DNA of 64,000 nucleotides. It comes from an uncultured Acidimicrobiia bacterium (GTDB lineage Bacteria > Acidobacteriota > Terriglobia > Versatilivoradales > Versatilivoraceae). This document shows positions 3,764-42,778 of the stretch, piece after piece. Where the stretch lies: positions 160,001 through 224,000 of the forward strand of contig CAWBAT010000004.1 in the NCBI GenBank assembly GCA_963786955.1. Direction: 5' to 3'. The notes under the pieces were generated by a model. That model worked only from the letters and a program-made list of their open reading frames with translations. It ran no database searches and was not told where the DNA came from. Every line of letters starts with the position of its first letter. Position 1 is the stretch's first letter. Position numbers and translations under genes: made by a program.

Positions 3764-4079
3764 AGTCGTGTCACTTTCTCCTTCCAAAGATGAATTAATT
3801 TAAGCCTTGCTTCACCATACTTAAATCCTAAAGGCAGTCACTTGGGTGGACTGAATGGAGATCGAACAAAATCGTTAATAATTGAAACAGCGTCAGGTAT
3901 ACTTTGTCCGTCCCGAATACCAAAAGCGAGTTCTCGATGAAAGCGAGCTGCTACCCAATTGGAGCACTACCGAGGCGGCAAAGACAAAAGAACGAGAAAC
4001 GCTTTCCCACAGGGGATATCTATGCTCTCATCTGCCAAGTTGGTAGATCAGAGTGAATGCATTAAATGAGGAGTCACGA

Positions 4080-5534
4080 ATGAAGAGATACAAGGCCGGT
4101 CTCATCATGCCCCACCCCGAAGACCAGAAGTGGGATAGCGTTTGGAAGATTTTCCGGTTTCCCAATCTGAATCTACCGACCCTTGCCGCGCTCATGCCTC
4201 AGGAGGAATGGGACATCGAGATTCAAGATGAGTTGGTGGGTCCGCTTAACTTCGAGCGCGATTATGACCTTGTCCTGATCAGCGTCACAACTTCTGTAGC
4301 AATCAAGTCCTACGAGGTAGCGCGGATCTTTCGCGCGAACGGCGCCACGGTCGTACTGGGAGGAATTCATCCGTCTGCGCTTCCGGAAGAGGCGGCCCAG
4401 CACGCGGATGCAGTGGTGATCGGCGAAGCGGAACTAACCTTGCCGCGCCTGCTCGACGATTTCAAAGAGGGACGGCTTGAAACTTTCTACCGAATGCCCG
4501 GAATGGTGGGGACATGGGACCAGAAGTTGCCTCGCTGGGATCTTTTGGACTCGAAGGGGTACCTGTTCCGCGAGTCCATGACTGCTACACGCGGCTGCAA
4601 CTACCGCTGCACGTTTTGCTCGATTCATCTGGCTTTGGGCGGGGGGGAGTACGGTTACCGAAAGCGTCCGCCCCAGGAAATCGCCCGGATTGTCGAGGGC
4701 ATCGAGGGGTCGTTCGTCATGTTTTGGGATGATGATCTGTTGTCCGAACCGCGCTATACGGCAGATCTCTGCCGGGAGCTGAAACCCCTGAAGAAGCACT
4801 GGATGAGTCAGATGAGCGCCACGTACGCTGCCCAACATCCCGAGGTGCTCAAGCTGCTCTCTGAAAGCGGATGCACGGCAATGTTCATGGGCCTGGAATC
4901 CATCAGTCAGGGCTCGCTCAAGTCAGTCAACAAGCAGAACAACGCAGCGCAATACGAGGAAACGCTCCGGCGCATACATGACAACGGCATCGACATTCAT
5001 GCCGGGTTCGTCTCCGGTCTTGACCACGAGGATGTCCACAGCTTCGAACAGACCGTCGAGTGGGCGAATCGGGTCGGACTGTGTGGCGCGATTTTCCGGA
5101 TCCTCACTCCCTATCCGGGAACAAGGCAATTTGAGGAACTCAGGGCCGCCGGCCGCCTCCTGACCACAGATTGGACCAGCTACAGCGGCGAGCACGTGGT
5201 TTTCCGACCGCTCAAAATGAGCGTTGAAGAGCTATACTGGGGGCACAAGTGGGCTAAGCGCCAGTTCTATTCATTTCGGTCGATCGGGGAGCGCGCTGTC
5301 CGGCGCGCCAAGATCCATGGGCCGGGGGAACTGTTGAACACCTTTGGCGTAGGGATGGGCTACCGCGCCATGTTCCATCTTCCCATTGAGGATCTACCCG
5401 TGAATGTGTACAGGGACAAAGGACACCTACCGCCTCAGCCTCAGCCTATCCCATACCGGTTTCCTTATCCTCCCGTGAATAATCTGAAACTGTCGATCAT
5501 GAACCGTCTCTCTGACTTGGTTCCATTCGGGTAA
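4080..5534 (+). CDS. B12-binding domain radical SAM protein
   Basis: N-terminal cobalamin-binding-like domain (VVLGGIHPS, VVIGEAE), RGCNYRCTFC CxxxCxxC, FMGLES, LTPYPGT; GAGGAG RBS. Confidence 0.88.
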   Translation: MKRYKAGLIMPHPEDQKWDSVWKIFRFPNLNLPTLAALMPQEEWDIEIQDELVGPLNFERDYDLVLISVTTSVAIKSYEVARIFRANGATVVLGGIHPSALPEEAAQHADAVVIGEAELTLPRLLDDFKEGRLETFYRMPGMVGTWDQKLPRWDLLDSKGYLFRESMTATRGCNYRCTFCSIHLALGGGEYGYRKRPPQEIARIVEGIEGSFVMFWDDDLLSEPRYTADLCRELKPLKKHWMSQMSATYAAQHPEVLKLLSESGCTAMFMGLESISQGSLKSVNKQNNAAQYEETLRRIHDNGIDIHAGFVSGLDHEDVHSFEQTVEWANRVGLCGAIFRILTPYPGTRQFEELRAAGRLLTTDWTSYSGEHVVFRPLKMSVEELYWGHKWAKRQFYSFRSIGERAVRRAKIHGPGELLNTFGVGMGYRAMFHLPIEDLPVNVYRDKGHLPPQPQPIPYRFPYPPVNNLKLSIMNRLSDLVPFG

Positions 5535-5647
5535 GCTATGTCGTGCTCTTCATAGCATTGCTTCCTCCGACTGGGACAAGAGCAGGGAAATGGGGTCATG
5601 ACTCGATATTAGATTCTGCTGCAAAACCCATCCTGATAGGCTAAAAA

Positions 5648-6098
5648 CCGCGGGTGGCGAAGACATCGTTTTGCGATGTCTTCGATTCTTTTACGAAATC
5701 AGCTCTTCCGATTGCACACGGAAAGCCGCCGAGAAACCTATTGGCGTTGGCAAGGACGCTGATGCATGGCACTGGGTCGGGCAAGTCCAGGCATCTCTGA
5801 AATGTCAAGCCACCCTCTTTCATGAAAAAAACGGCAGGAAATCTGCACCTACGCGACTTCTCAAGAAATAGAGTGAATTATTTCCCATTGCTGATGAATC
5901 ATACCCGCTCAATGCCGCATAAAATCAGGGGGGTTGCGGCAGAATCCGATGTCAAACCTGAGCCCCCTCTCTTCCCTGTTTCCTCATTTCTCTTACATAA
6001 AGCTGCTGCTTCGAAGACATGCAAATGACGCATGTCTTCGCCACCCGCCCATCTTGCTTCTCAGTTCTTGAATAATGAGATGTGGTGACCCCTTTTTT
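5648..6098. repeat. Complete L+R element with inverted terminal hairpin repeats (REPIN/MITE-like)
   Basis: GCGGGTGGCGAAGACAT at 5650 and its reverse complement ending at 6048; left half matches 3612-3763, right half matches 9741-10006. Confidence 0.85.
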
Positions 6099-6289
6099 CT
6101 CCTTTTTCCTATCCGGCGAACAGTTCGGGCAGGGTTTCGGCGATGGCGTCCATCTCGCAAGCGAAATAACTATCGGGTGGATGTGAAAATGGCCTGTGCC
6201 GGCGATTTTATGTGGCAGACCGGCGCGGTCGGTTGCTATAATTTATAGCCTCGAATGAGACCGGCGTAGCGAAACACCCTGAAGAAGCC

Positions 6290-6319
6290 TTGACTTGTGG
6301 CTTTGTAAGCAAATATTCT
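6290..6319 (+). promoter_or_regulatory. Putative sigma70 promoter of the 6426-9661 operon
   Basis: TTGACT-N18-TATTCT. Confidence 0.45.
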
Positions 6320-6425
6320 TTTTCAGATAAACCCGACGCAAGAGTCATTCCGCCTTGAACCACCCAGCGTCATGTAAAAGCGGGCGCATGAAAAACGAAT
6401 CCTATCAGTTCATTATTGGAGGTCC

Positions 6426-7754
6426 ATGATGACCCAATCGACAAAGCTCAGATTCTTTCCCCTGTACGCCCTGCTCCTGCTGATGTTGCCAGGGTGTTCC
6501 GACAAGCGGGAGGGCGGCGCCGCTCGCCGCAATGTCGAAGAGAGCCAGGCCCTGGTGCTGCTGCGTGGCCTGCCCACACTCGGCACCACCCACAGCGTCG
6601 CCATCGTCGAACTGAACCCGGACGCGGCGAATTTCGGTGCGATACTACAGGAGTTCGAACTTCCGAACCTCGCGTTCCCAATGCACCACCTTTACTACAG
6701 CCCTAACGGGCGGCTGTACTCGACCGGTCTTGACCCCAAGTGCAGCCTGGCCGAAATTGGCCTGTCGCGCAACGCCAACGGGGCCGCAGTGATCAACGGC
6801 GTCAAATGCCTCGATACCGGCGGTCAACAGGTCGGTGAAGACATCATCTGGCACAGCGTCAACGGCAAGGAATACATGTTCGTGACCTTCATGGGTGGCA
6901 CTGGCGTGGACCAGCCCGACTGCGGCTCGGTCGGCGTGTTCGATCCGCAGACTAATGCAGTTATCAAGATCGTCCAGGCGCGCAAGAGCGTTGTGGCCAA
7001 GGGTGCGCCATACATCATGTACCCGCACGGCATATCGGCGTACCAGGATCGCATGGTGCTTGGCTCTGCGGTTCACCCGGATCTCAAGACCGGCGTCGGT
7101 GATGCGATTGCCGTCATCGACCTGAACACCTTCGAGCCGATCCAGAACATCGTCGTCCAAGACGCGAAGCCGGTGGGCTTTCCATCGTCGCCGGTCGAAG
7201 TACTTTTTGTGCGACCCAGCATCGTGCCGGGCGTCGCGCCGGCCGTGCTGGTCAATACGATGTTCGGATTTGAAGTCTGGAAGATCCCGTACAACGAGGC
7301 GGACAAGAGTTTCGGCGTCCCCGTGAAGTTATACGACGGGGCGAAAGCGGGCACCGGAGTCCCACTCGAGTTCTATGGTAACGCGACCGAGTTGTTCGTC
7401 AGCCACGCTCTGCCGGGCGTCGTGAAGCGCTATAAACTCTCGGGCCTGCCTGAACTCGTTCCCTCGGGCGCGGACATCAAAGCCGAGGTGGGTGCGCACC
7501 ATATGATCTTTTTCACCACCGCCGCTGGCCGCAAGGTCATTGCAATACAGAACAACCTGCTGAATCTCGGCAACAAGGCCGACAACGATCCGACCGATGT
7601 CGATTTCATCGCCAAGCTCAACGCGCATTCGATCACCGTGCACGACCTGCAGAGCGGTGAGCTCATCGCAAAGGTCAACTTCAAGGAGCGCTACAAGAAG
7701 GGCGTCGAGAACATCGAGGCGCTGTTCGGCTCCGGCTTCGTGCACCACCATTGA
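6426..7754 (+). CDS. His-rich beta-propeller lipoprotein, SBP56/methanethiol-oxidase-like
   Basis: Lipobox LPGC; VAIVELNPDAANFGAIL..ELP..PMHH resembles the SBP56 N-terminal motif; YPHGIS, GAHHM, C-terminal HHH. Confidence 0.6.
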   Translation: MMTQSTKLRFFPLYALLLLMLPGCSDKREGGAARRNVEESQALVLLRGLPTLGTTHSVAIVELNPDAANFGAILQEFELPNLAFPMHHLYYSPNGRLYSTGLDPKCSLAEIGLSRNANGAAVINGVKCLDTGGQQVGEDIIWHSVNGKEYMFVTFMGGTGVDQPDCGSVGVFDPQTNAVIKIVQARKSVVAKGAPYIMYPHGISAYQDRMVLGSAVHPDLKTGVGDAIAVIDLNTFEPIQNIVVQDAKPVGFPSSPVEVLFVRPSIVPGVAPAVLVNTMFGFEVWKIPYNEADKSFGVPVKLYDGAKAGTGVPLEFYGNATELFVSHALPGVVKRYKLSGLPELVPSGADIKAEVGAHHMIFFTTAAGRKVIAIQNNLLNLGNKADNDPTDVDFIAKLNAHSITVHDLQSGELIAKVNFKERYKKGVENIEALFGSGFVHHH

Positions 7755-7759
7755 CGTCT

Positions 7760-8888
7760 ATGCTGCGCTTGCAAGGTGTTGTTGCTGCGGCGGCGTTGAT
7801 CGCCGCGCTGCTCGCAGCAATGGCAACAGGAGGCCTGCAATAAAGAGCGTCGGGCAGCGACCCCGCTATCCGGTTTCTCGGCGCCGTTCGTGTTCGGTCA
7901 CTTCCAGGTGCCCGCCGACAACCCGCTGACCAAGGAATCGGTGGAGCTCGGCCGGCGGCTCTTCTACGATCCACGCTTGTCGGCTAACGGTAAAGTGTCC
8001 TGCGCGACCTGTCATATCCAGCGCCTGGCCTTCACCGATGGCCGTGTCACCAGTGTCGGCGTATCCGGCAAGTCGCTGGCGTTCAACAGTATGAGCCTGG
8101 CCAACCTGATGTGGGGTCCACAGCACTTCTTCTGGAACGGGCGCGCCGCCACGCTGGAGGAGCAGGCGCTGATCCCGATCCAGCATCCGGATGAAATGGC
8201 GCAGGACCTGGGGCGACTGGTTGCCGAACTCTCCACCGATGCCAGCTACCGGGAAATGTTCGAAACGGCTTACGGCGAAGTCAGCGTGGCAGCAATCGCC
8301 CGTGCGCTGGCTTCATTCGAACGCACCTTGATCTCGTCCAATTCGCGCTACGACCAGTTCCTGCGCGGCGAGATCACACTGAATCCGCAGGAGGAACTGG
8401 GACGCAAGCTGTTCATGGCCCACCCGGACGTCAAAGTGAGTCTGCGCGGCGCCAACTGCATAGACTGTCACAGCCAGTTCCTAACCGGCGGCTTCAGTAC
8501 GCGCTACGACGGCTTCTCCAACAATGGCCTCGATGACGAGGACCACCTGCGGCCCGGCCTGCAGGTGGTCACTGGCAACCCGACACATCGCGGGCTGTTC
8601 AAGGTACCGTCGTTGCGGAACGTTGCGCTCACCGCGCCCTATATGCACGATGGCCGTTTCAAGACGCTCGAGGAGGTGCTGGATCACTACGACAGCGGGA
8701 TCAGGAACAGCAGCACACTTAGCTCCCTGATCGTGGAGGCCGACAACCGCGGCGGGGCGGCGGCAGGACGGATCAGCCTGCATCTGACGGCAACAGAGAA
8801 GGCGGCCATCATCACCTTCCTGCGCACGCTGACGGACCAGGATTTCGTGAGCGCAGAAAAGTTCTCCGATCCATTCGCGCGCAAGTGA
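7760..8888 (+). CDS. Di-heme cytochrome c peroxidase family, MbnH/MauG-like (extra base near 7834; ORF track start 7890)
   Basis: LGRRLFYDPRLS, CATCH, FWNGRA, CIDCH, FKVPSLRNVALTAPYMHDG; removing one C gives a signal peptide with lipobox ATGGC. Confidence 0.88.
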
Positions 8889-9661
8889 ATCGCATGCATA
8901 GAGCAAAGTACGTCATACCGATCCTGTTCGCGCTGGCCGCGATACTCAGCATCACAGGCTGGTGGCTATACCGCGCAGCGCAGCCGATTGAACTGGCACT
9001 GTACTTTCATCCGTTCGTCGGTCCGGAGCCGCTGGTGCTCAACGAATCGCGCTATCCCAATCCGGGTGGCGAGGGTCGTTTCAAGGTGCGCGATTTCCAG
9101 TTTTTTCTCAGCAACATCCGGCTAACGGGCGGTAACGGCGTGTACATCGAACCCGACAGTTATCACCTGGTGCGATTCGACGGCACCGAACCCGCCTTTG
9201 GCATCGTGCTGCACGACGTGCCGCGCCGGGACTACCAGCGGATCGAGTTTGGCATCGGCGTGGATGCCGCCGCCAACAAGTCGCTTGCGCAACGCGGAGA
9301 CCTGGACCCCAACGGCCGCATGGCCTGGAACTGGGAGGTCGGTTACAAATTCGTGCTGTTCGAAGGCACACTGGTGCGCGGAAACGAGAGCGTTCCGCTC
9401 GTCTATCACGTTGGATTCGAGGAGAACTACCGGCTCATCGCGACCGAGTTGCACCGCGAGCCACTGGGCCACCGCCCCGCGCGGCTGGATTTCCGGGTCG
9501 ATATCCTGCGCCTCTTCCAGGGTTCTACAACCGTCGACATGGTGGCGCTACCCAGTGTGAAGTTCGATCGGGCCGACGCGGCGCTGCTCGCGCGCAATTT
9601 TGCCACCATGGTCAAGCCGATGTGGCCTGGTGCAGCCGGTCAACCCGACGGGGTCCGTTGA
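8885..9661 (+). CDS. MbnP family copper-binding protein
   Basis: FFLSNIRL, FGIGVD, GDLDP..MAWNWEVGYKF (WxW motif), LVYHVG; overlaps the stop of the di-heme gene. Confidence 0.8.
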   Translation: MNRMHRAKYVIPILFALAAILSITGWWLYRAAQPIELALYFHPFVGPEPLVLNESRYPNPGGEGRFKVRDFQFFLSNIRLTGGNGVYIEPDSYHLVRFDGTEPAFGIVLHDVPRRDYQRIEFGIGVDAAANKSLAQRGDLDPNGRMAWNWEVGYKFVLFEGTLVRGNESVPLVYHVGFEENYRLIATELHREPLGHRPARLDFRVDILRLFQGSTTVDMVALPSVKFDRADAALLARNFATMVKPMWPGAAGQPDGVR

Positions 9662-9740
9662 TTCTGCCGCGTCTCGTGCATCACGCCTCCTCGAAACACG
9701 CCGAAGTCGCGGTGCCGTCGCTGGCCAATTGGGAGAAGGG

Positions 9741-10006
9741 AACGGCAGAAAATCTGCACCTACACAACTTCTCAAGAAATAGAGTGAATTATTTCCCATT
9801 GTTAATGAATCATACCCGCTCAATGCCGCATAAAATCAGGGGGTTCGCGGCAGAATCCGATGTCAAGACTGAGCCCCTTCTCTTCCCTCTTCTCTCATTT
9901 CTCTTATATGAGGCAGCTGCTTCGAAGACATGCAAATGACGCATGTCTTCGCCACCTACCCATCTTGCTCCTCATTTCTTGAATAATGAAATGTGACCCC
10001 TTTTTT
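9741..10006. repeat. Repeat R, copy 2
   Basis: Near-identical to 5829-6098. Confidence 0.9.
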
Positions 10007-10141
10007 CCTTTAAATCCTTGGACGCAGTGAGCCAAGATTATCTTAGTGGTTAGGGGAGCCACCGAGCCGCTGTTGCATGATGACGTGAGCTCGTTTCAGA
10101 TCTTTGCCAACCCTCAAACCGCCCACCGAAGCGGGTTCCTG

Positions 10142-12628
10142 CTAATTGGCTCTTTGAAATTCGATGTCGTCATCGACCTGAATGGAGTCTGCTAACGCTT
10201 TGCCATTCGCATTGGCCAACTCGGCTTTAGCTTCGAATTTCTCGGTATACATCTGCGAATCGGCGACGGTAAAGAGGTGATTGAGGTCCGTTCCATCGTG
10301 AGGATACATTGAGATGCCGACGCTGATTCCGAGTCGTACTTCTTTTCCAGATCTTACCTTGAGCAACAAGGAATGAATCGATTTTCGAATACGGCTGGCA
10401 ATCTTCTCAGCAGTTTCACGTTCCGCGTTATACAGGAAGGCCACGAATTCGTCACCCGCGTAGCGAATACACGTGTCGTATTTGCGCATTTCTTTTTGCA
10501 GCACTTCACTCACCTTGACCAGAACATCGTCCCCTACTTTGTGGCCATATTGGTCATTAATTTCTTTGAATCGGTTCAGGTCCATGACGAGAATGGCCAT
10601 TTTTTCTTTGCTGCGTTCGGCTTTCTTAACGTTCTGGTCAAATGCCATAAACATGTAGCGTGAATTGGGTAGCCCGGTGAGTGGATCGGTCAGCGAATTC
10701 TCTTCGAAGTATTCGAACGAAATCGCATTTTGGATGGCGACGGCAGCCCGCTCGCTGATGGTCTCCATTAACCGGGAATGATCTTCCGTAAAAGGTTCGT
10801 TGTCACGATCGGTAGAGTACAGGGCAATCGCTCCCAGGACCGTATTCTTTGCCGTGAGCGGAAAAATCATGGCGTTGGTCAGTTGATGGGGTTTTTCCAT
10901 AAAGGCCAGGTTCTTGAAATCATTCGTTGGGTCGTTATTGACGACAGGCTGGTTGAAGGCGATGGAATAACCCGTCAGACCCTCCCCTAACGCCATCCAG
11001 TTCTGACTTAACTGCTCGGAGTATTCTCCCGTGACCATGGCCGGGTAGATCATGTCGGTCTTCTTGTTCTTCAAGTAAACAACGCTGCTGGTGAAGGGAA
11101 CAATCGACTGCAGCTTGCTACAGATAATGCGCAGCGTGTCGTCCAAATTCAAGCTCTTCCCTACGGTTTGAAAGATCTCGTGCAAGGCGTAAATCTCGCG
11201 ATGCGTCGAGGCGATTTCCGTGAAGCCTTTCTTCCGCAACAAGAGTTTTTGATCCTCGGCGGAGTCCGGTGAGGTCTCGGAGAGATGCGTGTTGTTCCCG
11301 TATTTGCTGATGTCAAGCATGGCCACTTCTTCCATCAGCTCTTTAGAGACACGCAGGAAGGCAGCCACGACTTTTGCGTCATAGTGCATCCCCGATTCGT
11401 TCTTCAGCAGGTCGATGGCTTCCGCGGATGTCAGGGGTGTCCGGTAGGTTCGCTGGGCGGTTAAGGCATCAAACGTATCGGCTACGGCCAGGATTTTGGA
11501 TCCGATGGGAATCTGGTCGCCCTTCAGCCCATACGGATACCCCGATCCATTTTCCCGCTCGTGATGGTAACGGATCATCGGCACCACCGGGTAAGGGAAG
11601 TGAATGGGCTCCAGGATGTTGGCTCCGATCTCAACGTGACGCGTCATTTTAGCAAATTCGGAATCCGTCAAACTTCCCGGCTTTGAAAGGATATATTCGG
11701 GTATGGCAAGCTTGCCGATGTCGTGCAGCAGTGCAGCGGCTCTGAGAGCATCCAGATCGTCGCTATTCTCGATCCCCATGCTCTTAGCGATCCCGACTGC
11801 GTAAACCTGGACTCTTCGTGCGTGTCCGTGAGTGGAATGATCCTTGGCATCGATGGCCAGCGCCAGGGTTTCAATAATCGACATCTGTAACTGGGAATGT
11901 TCCTTGAGTTGGCGCGAGGCTTCAACGAGACGGGAAGAATAGACCTTGTAGGTAGAAAGGGCAAACAGGGAGAAAGGAACAAAGAGTAAGTAGATTTGAT
12001 TTCCCAGGGCTCCGGCAAAGAAATTCAGTAAGCCAACGGCGACCGAAACGGACAAGAAAACCAGGCTGGGAACTCTGTACTCTTTCTTCCATTCCTCGCC
12101 AAGACTGGCCCCTCTGAATATCTTTGCAGCGGTAACCCGAAACAAGGAATAGCAGAGATAATAACCCGTCACCACCAGAATGATGGGCAGTAAGGAACCA
12201 TACCGAGCAATCTCGCTCAAGGAATTATTCAGAATAAAGACTTTACCCATCAGCCACAAGGCAGCCAGGCTTGAAAGGGCATCAGGCAATTTCTCCACCA
12301 GCTTCATCTTGGAAATTCGATAGGTCCGGAACAGCCACCAACTAAACGCGACCATTGCGACTAGATTGGCATTGGATGGACCAATCCAAAAGAAGGTGCC
12401 GAGATAGATGAGGTGATAATAACGAAGCTGTTTGCCAACAAATGGCAGCATGACGCTGGATTCGGCAAAGGAAAAAGCCAGAACGACCGCAAACATTGCC
12501 AGCAGGCTCCAATCTTCGCGACAAGTTAATGATTCCCAGAGGAATAGGACTGCGAGCGCTGCGACGCTGAGAAAGATCGTGCGGCCCTGATGTTTCTTGG
12601 GGGAGGTCGTGTCCGCTGTAATTAGCAT
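10142..12628 (-). CDS. Membrane-bound HD-GYP + GAF + GGDEF protein
   Basis: N-terminal TM helices, LLHDIGK, HHERENGSGYP, GAF domain, RYAGDEF. Confidence 0.9.
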   Translation of the reverse strand: MLITADTTSPKKHQGRTIFLSVAALAVLFLWESLTCREDWSLLAMFAVVLAFSFAESSVMLPFVGKQLRYYHLIYLGTFFWIGPSNANLVAMVAFSWWLFRTYRISKMKLVEKLPDALSSLAALWLMGKVFILNNSLSEIARYGSLLPIILVVTGYYLCYSLFRVTAAKIFRGASLGEEWKKEYRVPSLVFLSVSVAVGLLNFFAGALGNQIYLLFVPFSLFALSTYKVYSSRLVEASRQLKEHSQLQMSIIETLALAIDAKDHSTHGHARRVQVYAVGIAKSMGIENSDDLDALRAAALLHDIGKLAIPEYILSKPGSLTDSEFAKMTRHVEIGANILEPIHFPYPVVPMIRYHHERENGSGYPYGLKGDQIPIGSKILAVADTFDALTAQRTYRTPLTSAEAIDLLKNESGMHYDAKVVAAFLRVSKELMEEVAMLDISKYGNNTHLSETSPDSAEDQKLLLRKKGFTEIASTHREIYALHEIFQTVGKSLNLDDTLRIICSKLQSIVPFTSSVVYLKNKKTDMIYPAMVTGEYSEQLSQNWMALGEGLTGYSIAFNQPVVNNDPTNDFKNLAFMEKPHQLTNAMIFPLTAKNTVLGAIALYSTDRDNEPFTEDHSRLMETISERAAVAIQNAISFEYFEENSLTDPLTGLPNSRYMFMAFDQNVKKAERSKEKMAILVMDLNRFKEINDQYGHKVGDDVLVKVSEVLQKEMRKYDTCIRYAGDEFVAFLYNAERETAEKIASRIRKSIHSLLLKVRSGKEVRLGISVGISMYPHDGTDLNHLFTVADSQMYTEKFEAKAELANANGKALADSIQVDDDIEFQRAN

Positions 12629-13944
12629 GTAGGCTCCGAATTCACTTCAGTTTCTGCAATCGAACACACCCGATTTCGCCCGGTTCTCTTGGCTTGGTAC
12701 AAGTACGCGTCTGCCTTCTCAATGAGTTCTTTTTGAATGACGTCCAGATCGATCTGATTATCTAAAGAGGTTTCTTGGACACCGATACTGACCGTGATGG
12801 GATCCCCCGCTTCTGTGGCAAATGTTTCACTGACCAGCTTGCGGATCCCGTCCATGATCTTATGAGCCACATCCAACTTGGTGTTGGGTAAGATCACCAC
12901 GAACTCCTCGCCTCCATAGCGAGCGATGACAGAACCTTTTCTCAGGTTCGTGCTCAAAACGAAACCAAGTTTGCAGAGAACTTTGTCTCCAGCTGCATGT
13001 CCGAAGGTGTCATTGACCTTCTTGAAATAGTCGATGTCCAACAGAGCCAAACTAACGGGGAACTTCTGCTGGCGTGCATTGGAGAGTTCAACCCGCATGC
13101 GTTCTTCAAAAAACCTTCGGTTGTATACGTTCGTCAACTTGTCCGTGATGGCCATGGTCTGCATGGCGCTAAATTGACGCGCATTGCTAAGAGCTACCGC
13201 AATATGCCCGGATACCGTATAGAAGAGAGTCTTTTCAGATTCTGTCCAAGCAACGCCCTTGGTGCATCGATGAACCACAATGATTCCGATCAGCTCTGAC
13301 TTATAGAGAAGGGGGAATGCCATGATGCCGTGAATCTTGAACTCATCGAGGACCGTTTCATGGGCGGAGAGGGAAGGCGCGCCGAGAGTCTCGTCAATGG
13401 CAACGGGTTCCATTCCATTCGAAACCATTTTCAGAAGGAGAAAGTTCAATTTGGCTGTTTTCTGGGCTGAGCAGGAACTTGTTCCTTCGGCACAGGATTC
13501 GAAATACTTGGCTACGGGTTTTTCTTTCCCTAAGGAAATAATGACGCAGCGGTCTGCCGGGATGTGTTGGACCAATTGTTGGGCCGAGTTCTTTAAAATG
13601 TCGCCTAACTCGTTGGATTCATAAACCATCTTGATAATGGCGTCGGTCTTTTCCACTTGCTTCCGCCGAGCCTGAACCTCAACTTCCTCAACGGTCCCTT
13701 TGTTTGAGGAACGTTCATCTGCCAATTGGGCGGAAATCAAAGCAATCTCCCGGGCAATTTCGTTGGCTCGGTCAAATTTGCCGGTACGCCGATAGATGTC
13801 TTCAAGGCTTTGTTTGGCAGGCAGATAACGTGGGTAGCGTTCTAGCGCATCTTCCAAAAGCTCAATGGCTTTGGCATACGATTGATACTTGATGTAAAGT
13901 TCCGTTTCTACCATCAGATCTAAGACTTCGTTTTCGTATGTCAT
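12622..13944 (-). CDS. TPR-GAF-GGDEF diguanylate cyclase
   Basis: TDKLT..NRRFF, DIDYFKKVND.FGH..GD, RYGGEEF. Confidence 0.9.
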   Translation of the reverse strand: MTYENEVLDLMVETELYIKYQSYAKAIELLEDALERYPRYLPAKQSLEDIYRRTGKFDRANEIAREIALISAQLADERSSNKGTVEEVEVQARRKQVEKTDAIIKMVYESNELGDILKNSAQQLVQHIPADRCVIISLGKEKPVAKYFESCAEGTSSCSAQKTAKLNFLLLKMVSNGMEPVAIDETLGAPSLSAHETVLDEFKIHGIMAFPLLYKSELIGIIVVHRCTKGVAWTESEKTLFYTVSGHIAVALSNARQFSAMQTMAITDKLTNVYNRRFFEERMRVELSNARQQKFPVSLALLDIDYFKKVNDTFGHAAGDKVLCKLGFVLSTNLRKGSVIARYGGEEFVVILPNTKLDVAHKIMDGIRKLVSETFATEAGDPITVSIGVQETSLDNQIDLDVIQKELIEKADAYLYQAKRTGRNRVCSIAETEVNSEPTC

Positions 13945-14187
13945 CTCTGCTGTCCTCACGTTATCTCTCCTCAAAATCTCTTTGCCAGTTGCCCTGCCTC
14001 GATCAACCGGACACCCATTGAATAGCATATGGCCTGCCAAAAATAACTTGTTTATTACCTATAACTTGATAACAACAAAGATGAAATCGGTCACTTCTGA
14101 TCGGACAAATTGTCCGAAAAGCGACCGCCCGGGAGTCTGGGCTACTTCCTACAAATGGGGATGAAGAGATTAATTAAGGAAAGGCTT

Positions 14188-41860: not shown

Positions 41861-42778
41861 TTACAGGATTTCCTCAATCGCTTTCTGGATGACACTTTCA
41901 TCCTGGTAGTTGACAAAATGACTGCGGATGATCCCCTGTTTATCAACCAGGAATATTGTCGGGAAAAGCTGTACTCCGCCATAATTGGATTGGATTTCTG
42001 TCGTGAGATGAGCAACGGGGAAATTGACTTTGTGCCCTTCTAGGTAGGCTTTCCGATCGGAATCTTTGTAATCGAGTTCCAAGACATGATCCGCATTAAA
42101 TCCAACGACTGTGAAATCCCGATTTTGGAATCTTTTCTCCAAGGAAACCAGGTGCGGTGTAATTTGGGCACAGGGCGGACAGTTCGTAAACCAAAAATAG
42201 ATGAGATACGGCTTGCCTTTCAGTTCGCTGGAACTGATGGCACGCCCATCAAGCAACTGAGCGGTGAACGGGGGAGCAACTTTCCCTTCCCAGCCCGCGA
42301 TGCTCCGTTCGATGAGTTTGTTAAAACGGGGATCCGCCTGAATCTTTTCAATATTGACTCTCGTGATCTCTCCGCTCTTTGGATCCCGGGTGATGAACTT
42401 CGGGACCCGCGGATCGGATTCCAGTATCTTTAGAATCAAATCTGCTTCACCTTCCACTTTCAGATTGAACTGCTGCGAAAGCTCCATAAGCGTAGGAGGC
42501 CTCTTGGCGTTTTGGTAATACTGCGAAACAAAGATGGGAACTTTGAAGAAAATATTGTAAAGACGGTCAATCACCTTGCGTTCCGCGGGCGTGGTAAACA
42601 CTTCGTTATAAAGTTCGGAAACGATGACGGGTTTGCCGCTTTGGACGAGGCCTCTCAGTTGCGTCACGACTCGCGTTTCGACGTCAGGGCTGTCTTGAGG
42701 AAGACTCAGCATTGAGCAAGCGAGCAGGTAGAGAAAGACCATTGATGCTGGAAGTGATTTCAAGAAAAATGATTTCAT
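41861..42778 (-). CDS. Exported TlpA/redoxin family thiol-disulfide oxidoreductase with an extra N-terminal domain
   Basis: APPFT..LDG, FWFTNCPPC, FPTIFLVDKQG. Confidence 0.85.
   Translation of the reverse strand: MKSFFLKSLPASMVFLYLLACSMLSLPQDSPDVETRVVTQLRGLVQSGKPVIVSELYNEVFTTPAERKVIDRLYNIFFKVPIFVSQYYQNAKRPPTLMELSQQFNLKVEGEADLILKILESDPRVPKFITRDPKSGEITRVNIEKIQADPRFNKLIERSIAGWEGKVAPPFTAQLLDGRAISSSELKGKPYLIYFWFTNCPPCAQITPHLVSLEKRFQNRDFTVVGFNADHVLELDYKDSDRKAYLEGHKVNFPVAHLTTEIQSNYGGVQLFPTIFLVDKQGIIRSHFVNYQDESVIQKAIEEIL

Follow-up and report, generated by a model that had tools for sequence, protein, structure and literature searches.

A 64,000-nucleotide stretch of contig CAWBAT010000004.1 (GenBank assembly GCA_963786955.1, positions 160,001 to 224,000), from an uncultured bacterium and hereafter called the window, carries three adjoining genes that encode a propeller lipoprotein, a di-haem enzyme of the MbnH type and a protein of the MbnP fold. 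Comparison with related loci indicates that these genes form a self-contained, horizontally mobile unit, in which, among close relatives, the propeller is rarely found without its two partners. By analogy with characterised systems, and with slightly less than even confidence, this unit is read here as a mobile cassette for a membrane-tethered periplasmic metalloprotein, in which MbnH would mature MbnP and MbnP would serve a copper-oxidase propeller. The features that define the cassette are the following.

6426..7754, + strand: propeller lipoprotein P0001, 442 amino acids, predicted remote seven-bladed propeller of the SBP56 superfamily
6426..6497, + strand: signal peptide of the propeller with lipobox LPGC and Cys24, assigned from sequence
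7833..8888, + strand: body of the MbnH-type di-haem enzyme (P0002, from 7890), with CATCH38, CIDCH190 and the invariant Y267
8885..9661, + strand: MbnP-fold protein P0003, 258 amino acids, with an N-terminal membrane helix, M146-A-W148-N-W150, H94, H175 and no Cys

Conservation of the three-gene unit

In the list of open reading frames (ORFs) of the window, the trio appears as three ORFs on the + strand, at 6426-7754, 7890-8888 and 8885-9661. The tight operon described in the initial annotation of this DNA was borne out, as only 5 nt separate the stop codon of the propeller gene from an ATG at 7760, and genes 2 and 3 overlap by 4 nt. When species-representative genomes were scanned, 63 loci with 54-89% identity to the propeller were recovered, distributed under seven phylum labels. 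Of the 59 informative loci, 57 have MbnH after the propeller, and MbnP follows in 55 of 57; four loci in which the contig ends before mbnH (L024, L037, L047 and L058) were left out as uninformative, and two other contigs end within mbnH (L009 and L042). There were two true exceptions, namely a Bryobacterales metagenome-assembled genome (MAG) in which an IS240-type transposase interrupts the propeller gene (L046, 5980-7781) and a Paracoccaceae MAG in which phage terminase genes lie after the propeller (L044, 7462-11478). Besides, a Ruegeria arenilitoris strain holds a degraded copy in pieces, with 42-54% identity (L064, 6343-8144). A crude clustering of the ORFs of the 63 loci gave three widely common clusters, present in 55, 52 and 47 loci, and the next cluster by size (9 loci) was Ruegeria-specific. 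Such synteny is far beyond chance, and the coupling to MbnH and MbnP that had been proposed from the window is near-obligate in the close clade. Cultured isolates with the trio span Alpha- and Gammaproteobacteria, the marine carriers including Ruegeria, Leisingera, Alteromonas, Kordiimonas and Bowmanella.

The propeller as a remote relative of SBP56

All the motifs listed in the initial annotation were found in the trio, including the CxxCH motifs of the di-haem enzyme and the WNW of the third protein. In P0001 they correspond to P85-M-H87-H88, Y199-P-H201-G, G356-A-H358-H359 and a terminal HHH (H440-H442), along with two Trp only, W142 and W285. The lipobox is kept among relatives as PGC, TAC or AAC. 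P0001 had no match in Pfam or NCBIfam at E<=0.1, and single-sequence searches returned noise only from the PDB and no match from plasmids. One search gave 891 homologues at E<=0.001, of which the best 120 (76-91% identity) are all named 'hypothetical protein' and carry no Pfam domain; among 1.84 billion cluster representatives there were 120 matches, with only a handful of full-length distant ones (30-49% identity). The propeller thereby defines a large protein family without a Pfam or NCBIfam model. In an alignment of 27 chosen members (A1), H87, H88, E138, D139, H201, E258, E315, H358, H359, Q375 and the C-terminal H442 are invariant.

The AlphaFold2 model of P0001 (pLDDT 87.3, pTM 0.86) shows a strand pattern that was read as a seven-bladed propeller, consistent with the fold matches. 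The strands that bear the invariant residues (86-91, 135-145, 200-206, 256-262, 311-318 and 357-364) were assigned as the first strands of blades 2-7. Since these strands are presumably innermost, the invariant His, Glu and Asp residues would fit a single central site. With Foldseek, the best match of the model was the SBP56 structure 2ECE (E 1.1e-9, TM 0.60), which also ranked first with VIA-align (Z 31.6, root-mean-square deviation 3.3, 358 residues aligned, 14% identity); its lead is modest, the runners-up being lactonase-type propellers with Z 29.2-27. The initial annotation had called for a check of SBP56 likeness and of the placement of the His residues, and both came out in its favour, with 2ECE as the top fold match and the invariant residues on the assigned innermost strands.

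Sequence profiles pointed in the same direction. The A1 profile retrieved 2ECE from the PDB at E 2.9e-4, and hhalign paired A1 with seven canonical SBP56 sequences at 96.2% probability (E 2.6e-9, 312 columns) and with five divergent exported SBP56-like proteins at 98.4% (E 1e-14, 357 columns), the value for one Ruegeria SBP56 alone being 44%. In these alignments, H87/H88 fall on the LHH of SBP56, i.e., the XHHX motif (human H73/H74; MtoX His89/His90), E258 falls on the central Glu (human E252), H201 replaces an Asp (human D189) and the GGPQM of SBP56 becomes GAHHM; the human SELENBP1 numbering was assigned by motif identity, the human protein itself standing outside the alignment. According to an excerpt of PMC10362175, H73, H74, H137, H140, D189 and E252 of human SELENBP1 are every one needed for activity, and a passage of PMC5739008 has the copper of MtoX thought to be bound by His89, His90, His140 and His412. 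From these comparisons, the propeller is a remote member of the SBP56 superfamily, with a site that has been rebuilt and made more His-rich, outside the SBP56 family proper.

Other seven-bladed enzymes scored lower, with Z 23.1 for the nitrous oxide reductase NosZ (2IWF) and Z 22.8 for thiocyanate dehydrogenase (5F75, covering model residues 36-442) in VIA-align. Homology to either was rejected, as no sequence signal was obtained in the single-sequence and profile searches of the PDB. An SBP56 search of the window's genome gave no match. The tally for SBP56 in its phylum, which takes in the unpublished genome G029, is 26 of 201. In Ruegeria conchae, a canonical SBP56 exists alongside the cassette. 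Separately, an exported SBP56-like clade was noticed in the window's phylum (L082 1092-2309, L084 1396-2643, L085 1411-2703, L086 1369-2682 and L087 544-1860), scoring 24-82 bits on the Pfam SBP56 model and bearing a PHGIS motif in some members. This clade links canonical SBP56 with the cassette propeller in profile comparisons.

The fold also bears on an explanation that involves no enzyme, in which the propeller would bind copper, or a ligand carrying it, at the envelope and pass this cargo to MbnP, in the position held by the TonB-dependent receptor MbnT beside other MbnP/MbnH pairs. Such a role in acquisition or trafficking would be in line with the BtuG-type ligand-binding propeller lipoproteins found among the fold matches of P0001 and with the invariant His-rich tail at its C-terminus. 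Besides, MbnP/MbnH pairs usually adjoin TonB receptors according to a passage of PMC3621798, whereas none lies within ~6 kb here, and Cu-bound methanobactin builds up in mbnP and mbnH mutants, as stated in an excerpt of PMC13729199. However, an identity of 64-91% across phyla and the presence of invariant residues on inner strands in six blades look more like a catalytic site than a surface for binding; by structure and by profile, the nearest relatives (SBP56) are enzymes, and no transporter is conserved beside the cassette. Trafficking alone is therefore regarded as unlikely.

MbnH and MbnP as proposed maturation partners

P0002 matched CCP_MauG (PF03150) at 9.7e-60 and the NCBIfam MbnH model TIGR04039 at 5.5e-82; the latter, at 275.5 bits, was its best-scoring model, below the 362.85-bit cut-off. 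The nearest solved chain was 6E1C (2.7e-63), which we take to be the MbnH of Methylosinus trichosporium OB3b, MauG following at ~1e-29. Y267 is invariant in 23/23 cassette MbnH sequences and pairs with a Tyr of 6E1C, which makes it a candidate axial ligand of the six-coordinate haem.

P0003 was recognised by the Pfam MbnP model PF20243 (1.1e-37, 130.2 bits for a cut-off of 27). In its AlphaFold2 model (pLDDT 88.3), residues 3-31 form an N-terminal helix; at E<=0.001, the model matched the MbnP structure 7L6G alone (6/6 hits, best 4.7e-8, TM 0.54), the next match being at 0.011. Its MAWNW segment is identical to that of 7L6G, and M146, W148, W150 and H175 are present in 48/48 cassette MbnPs and H94 in 46/48. 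MbnH, through a bis-Fe(IV) state, converts a Trp of the WxW motif of MbnP to kynurenine, creating a copper site, according to excerpts of PMC11951088 and PMC11892367. When mbnP or mbnH is lost, copper stays on methanobactin, as described in an excerpt of PMC13729199. In parallel, SBP56 thiol oxidases require copper and the bacterial ones are encoded with SCO1 and MauG, as described in parts of PMC10362175 and PMC5739008.

On these precedents, MbnH of the cassette would use peroxide to oxidise the Trp of the WNW motif of MbnP to kynurenine, making a copper site as in methanotrophs. MbnP would then be the dedicated copper donor of the propeller, the role attributed to SCO1 in mtoX-SCO1-mauG operons, or would provide it with electrons. 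The propeller would be the catalytic subunit, oxidising a small molecule, possibly a thiol, in a copper-dependent manner. By analogy with these systems, it is plausible that the pair delivers copper to such an oxidase or matures it. The propeller has SBP56 similarity with apparently clustered His residues and its close homologues commonly co-occur with MbnH and MbnP, the two points on which the initial annotation had hung this proposal.

Instead of acting on MbnP, MbnH could modify the propeller directly, installing a protein-derived cofactor or cross-link at the central site in the manner of MauG on pre-methylamine dehydrogenase, with MbnP as a mere copper chaperone or scaffold. The mtoX operons give some basis for this, as they pair a MauG homologue with SBP56 and no MbnP, and a Trp-derived cofactor has been proposed there (in a passage of PMC5739008). 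Likewise, W285 is almost invariant across the propeller family, A1 shows conserved Tyr residues close to the site (Y90, Y98 and Y317), and the cassette MbnH is unusually conserved, with a mean column identity of 77%. Direct modification is nevertheless judged improbable, for the di-haem enzyme is much nearer 6E1C than MauG, the known substrate motif of MbnH, MAWNW, is invariant in the co-encoded MbnP, and of the two Trp of the propeller W142 is not conserved.

A further possibility is a stable redox enzyme with the propeller and MbnP as its two subunits, in which the kynurenine-copper site would be an electron-transfer or a second catalytic centre. Such an enzyme would resemble methylamine dehydrogenase with its light subunit and amicyanin. 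All three proteins appear to be membrane-tethered, through lipoboxes in the propeller and in the MbnH of relatives and through the helix at residues 3-31 of MbnP, and cupredoxin domains fused or adjacent to distant propellers in two loci (L095 and L098) suggest copper electron carriers as partners. However, with a mean column identity of 54%, MbnP is far less conserved than the propeller and MbnH, and the cupredoxin link is restricted to distant relatives, which makes this arrangement distinctly unlikely. Fusions also occur with DUF1264, in four distant propellers with 30-35% identity (L095 1158-4634, L097 2197-3843, L098 219-3420 and L099 2-1702). The neighbours of these fused genes (an AmoA-like fragment and PAC2) suggest archaeal contigs.

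Evidence against the copper-oxidase reading

Several results weigh against a copper-oxidase propeller served by MbnH and MbnP. Regarding the propeller, the Pfam SBP56 model (PF05694, cut-off 34 bits) was unmatched by P0001 at E<=0.1, and homologues of P0001 in two genomes (G001 and G005) scored 20.8 and 19.5 bits, over model positions 15-70 only. The HxxH of SBP56 (human H137/H140) has no counterpart, the aligned H143 being variable with E138/D139 invariant nearby, and GWNxCSSC is missing, LYYSP following the HH of the propeller without any CSSC. Canonical SBP56 membership was rejected and, because of these absences and of the Pfam score below cut-off, thiol oxidase chemistry is not transferable to the propeller. 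Hence, the SBP56-like assignment of the initial annotation stands as remote homology, with 2ECE on top and hhalign at 96.2/98.4%, and falls as family membership. The clustering of the His residues was judged from strand periodicity and not from inter-residue distances, and the His/Glu/Asp site could hold iron, zinc or manganese rather than copper. Regarding MbnP, P0003 scored 39.2 bits on the MbnP equivalog model TIGR04052 (cut-off 140) and has 0 Cys versus four in canonical MbnP, 7L6G being deposited as a 'four-Cys motif protein'.

The phylogenetic breadth calls for the same caution, as many of the phylum labels are those of MAG bins and may be wrong. Besides, MbnH and MbnP were absent by tblastn from 14 metagenome loci of distant relatives (29-40% identity), which came from a metagenome scan with a 3-sequence alignment, and neither CCP_MauG nor MbnP was listed when 50 ORFs from 12 of these 14 loci were scanned against Pfam. 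The propeller fold itself therefore does not require the pair, and MbnH and MbnP were recruited as a derived feature within the highly conserved clade.

A frameshift in mbnH of this assembly and possible transcription of relatives

In the window, the di-haem enzyme body and its export signal are in different frames, as given by two additional features.

7760..7843, + strand: orphaned mbnH start with signal peptide MLRLQGVVAAAALIAALLAAMATGGLQ ending in a stop, in a frame that differs from that of the enzyme body
~7831, + strand: extra base, GGAGG versus GGGG in relatives, which frameshifts mbnH in this assembly

The P0002 ORF has no signal peptide and the mbnH frame has no start before 7890, so that the export signal, needed for c-type haem attachment, is out of frame. 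The extra base at ~7831 is missing from 6/6 aligned relatives, which read through to a lipoprotein signal (...ATGAC-NKQRR), and also from 2/2 public-run contigs that span the site, one from DNA (X1) and one from an RNA library (X15). None of the public sequencing runs contained more than 38% of the words of 7300-8400. Because a 1-nt insertion separates the signal peptide, the mbnH copy of the window is either inactivated or mis-assembled at one base. Programmed frameshifting was also considered and is unsupported, since every relative reads through.

Transcription was approached through RNA-library contigs of three studies (X15, X16 and X17; soil and sediment), which match the cassette at 85-99% identity. 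Single contigs of X15 span both gene junctions, at 7470-8183 and 8586-8935. These contigs come from relatives and may include DNA carry-over, and they lend weak support to transcription of the cassette in soil and sediment relatives.

The frameshift, together with the copy cut by an insertion sequence in L046, the phage genes after the propeller in L044 and the degraded copy of L064, could suggest that the trio consists of neighbours without common function, or is a decaying remnant in this genome. However, order and spacing are kept in the 57 of 59 informative loci, under seven phylum labels and with flanks differing each time, RNA-library contigs of three studies fall on the cassette, and the frameshift is unique to this assembly. 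This explanation is accordingly given very little credence.

Insertion of the cassette and its surroundings

Several features of this locus point to a horizontally mobile unit that was recently inserted in this genome. The cassette differs from its flanks in G+C content (58-65% versus 47-51%), and it matches the DNA of L010 (a MAG with the label Acidimicrobiia) at 95.1% identity over 6258-9666 only. A sample of 301 genomes from the phylum of the window contained the propeller gene in a single case, the window's own genome. In a tree of 58 rows, from which six loci with fewer than 380 residues covered had been dropped (L010, L037, L046, L047, L058 and L064), the window falls in a 15-row clade with support 100/98 and six phylum labels. 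The cassette is bracketed by two direct repeats that are 91% identical to each other, and preceded by a candidate promoter.

5828..6099, + strand: left direct repeat, ~260-270 nt, containing a hairpin like a repetitive extragenic palindrome (REP); from repeat finding and pairwise alignment
9739..10007, + strand: right direct repeat; from repeat finding and pairwise alignment
6290..6319, + strand: promoter-like site upstream of the propeller gene, TTGACT, 16-18 nt spacer, AATATT/TATTCT; from a consensus scan

The full-length repeat occurs at these two places only in the genome, its inner hairpin core having ~40 copies. This REP-like hairpin, with the core GAAGACATGC...GCATGTCTTC, lies at 5650-5684, 5977-6050 and 9888-9960 of the window, and its ~40 copies are spread across contigs. 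It is found in both flanking repeats and also behind the radical-SAM gene, where it is terminator-like. The promoter-like site falls inside the 95% nucleotide match to L010, which begins at 6258; the scan that yielded it gives no more sites than expected by chance. The 890-nt spacer upstream of the propeller gene holds no convincing ORF, and an Rfam search of 5400-10300 gave no match.

Neither a TonB receptor nor SCO1 nor a methanobactin gene was found within ~6 kb of the cassette, in agreement with what had been noted from the window. Its sole SCO1/SenC-like match, at 42119-42271 on the - strand, is marginal (26 bits) and lies 32 kb away, and three stronger SCO1 matches are on other contigs of the same genome. 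The flanking genes are unrelated to the cassette and encode an aminotransferase, EamA, TPR, a B12 radical-SAM enzyme and GGDEF/HD proteins. The last of these correspond to a GAF-GGDEF gene and an HD-GYP-like/GAF/GGDEF gene with a 7-nt overlap (10142-14040, - strand). The upstream B12-binding radical-SAM gene (4053-5534) has a G+C content of 54-59%, versus 44-45% in the left flank, and may be separately acquired; none of the 63 related loci yielded a homologue of this gene.

Relation to known systems and significance

The closest parallel is the mtoX-SCO1/senC-mauG operon of Hyphomicrobium sp. VS and Ruegeria pomeroyi, which likewise combines an SBP56-superfamily propeller with a di-haem enzyme of the MauG type and a small protein that handles copper. 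The cassette propeller shares with its SBP56 the HH motif and the central Glu. Unlike it, the cassette propeller is a lipoprotein, only ~14% identical to 2ECE and under the cut-off of the Pfam SBP56 model; HxxH and GWNxCSSC are missing from it, H201 stands in place of Asp, and H358/H359 and the C-terminal His are gained. In addition, the cassette has MbnP instead of SCO1 and its di-haem enzyme is MbnH-type. The second parallel is with the MbnP/MbnH pair of methanobactin operons (Methylosinus trichosporium OB3b, 7L6G), in which the two genes are also adjacent and with which the cassette shares the MbnP fold, MAWNW and a di-haem enzyme nearest 6E1C. In contrast to these operons, the cassette contains neither a methanobactin gene nor a TonB receptor and has an obligate third gene; its MbnP, unlike that of OB3b, is Cys-less with a membrane helix, and both cassette proteins score below the NCBIfam equivalog cut-offs.

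Looser likenesses were also considered. MauG, pre-methylamine dehydrogenase and amicyanin provide, from one locus, a di-haem Trp oxidiser, a seven-bladed propeller subunit and a copper protein, and their likeness to the cassette is one of analogy only. In nitrous oxide reductase (CuZ) and thiocyanate dehydrogenase, a central copper cluster is held by inner-strand His residues. Both are likewise seven-bladed, with fold scores lower than those of SBP56 and the lactonases; unlike them, the cassette has no cupredoxin domain, no nos-type maturation genes and no detectable sequence similarity.

The biological role of MbnP/MbnH is said to need more study in a passage of PMC11951088. Outside methanobactin operons the two were termed 'mysterious partners' in 2013 (in part of PMC3621798), and an excerpt of a 2026 paper ties them loosely to copper release (PMC13729199). 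Setting aside a 2021 PNAS article on MbnP and a 2023 Biochemistry article on MbnH, the literature searched contained no description of the trio. The cassette gives MbnH/MbnP a constant third partner, most closely related to copper-dependent thiol oxidases. Because the trio is compact, extremely conserved and present in cultured marine bacteria that are harmless, the link between MbnH/MbnP and the propeller, i.e., whether the pair feeds or matures it, is directly testable, as is the substrate of the putative enzyme. More speculatively, and with a low probability in our view, the propeller and a kynurenine-copper MbnP would constitute a new, widespread class of periplasmic cuproenzymes oxidising a small volatile or trace compound, which would reveal the general job of MbnP/MbnH. 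If true, the His-rich active site would be derived from SBP56 but re-invented, the compound would be one oxidised in soils, sediments and sea water, and MbnP/MbnH pairs outside methanotrophs would be dedicated maturation or electron partners of propeller enzymes.

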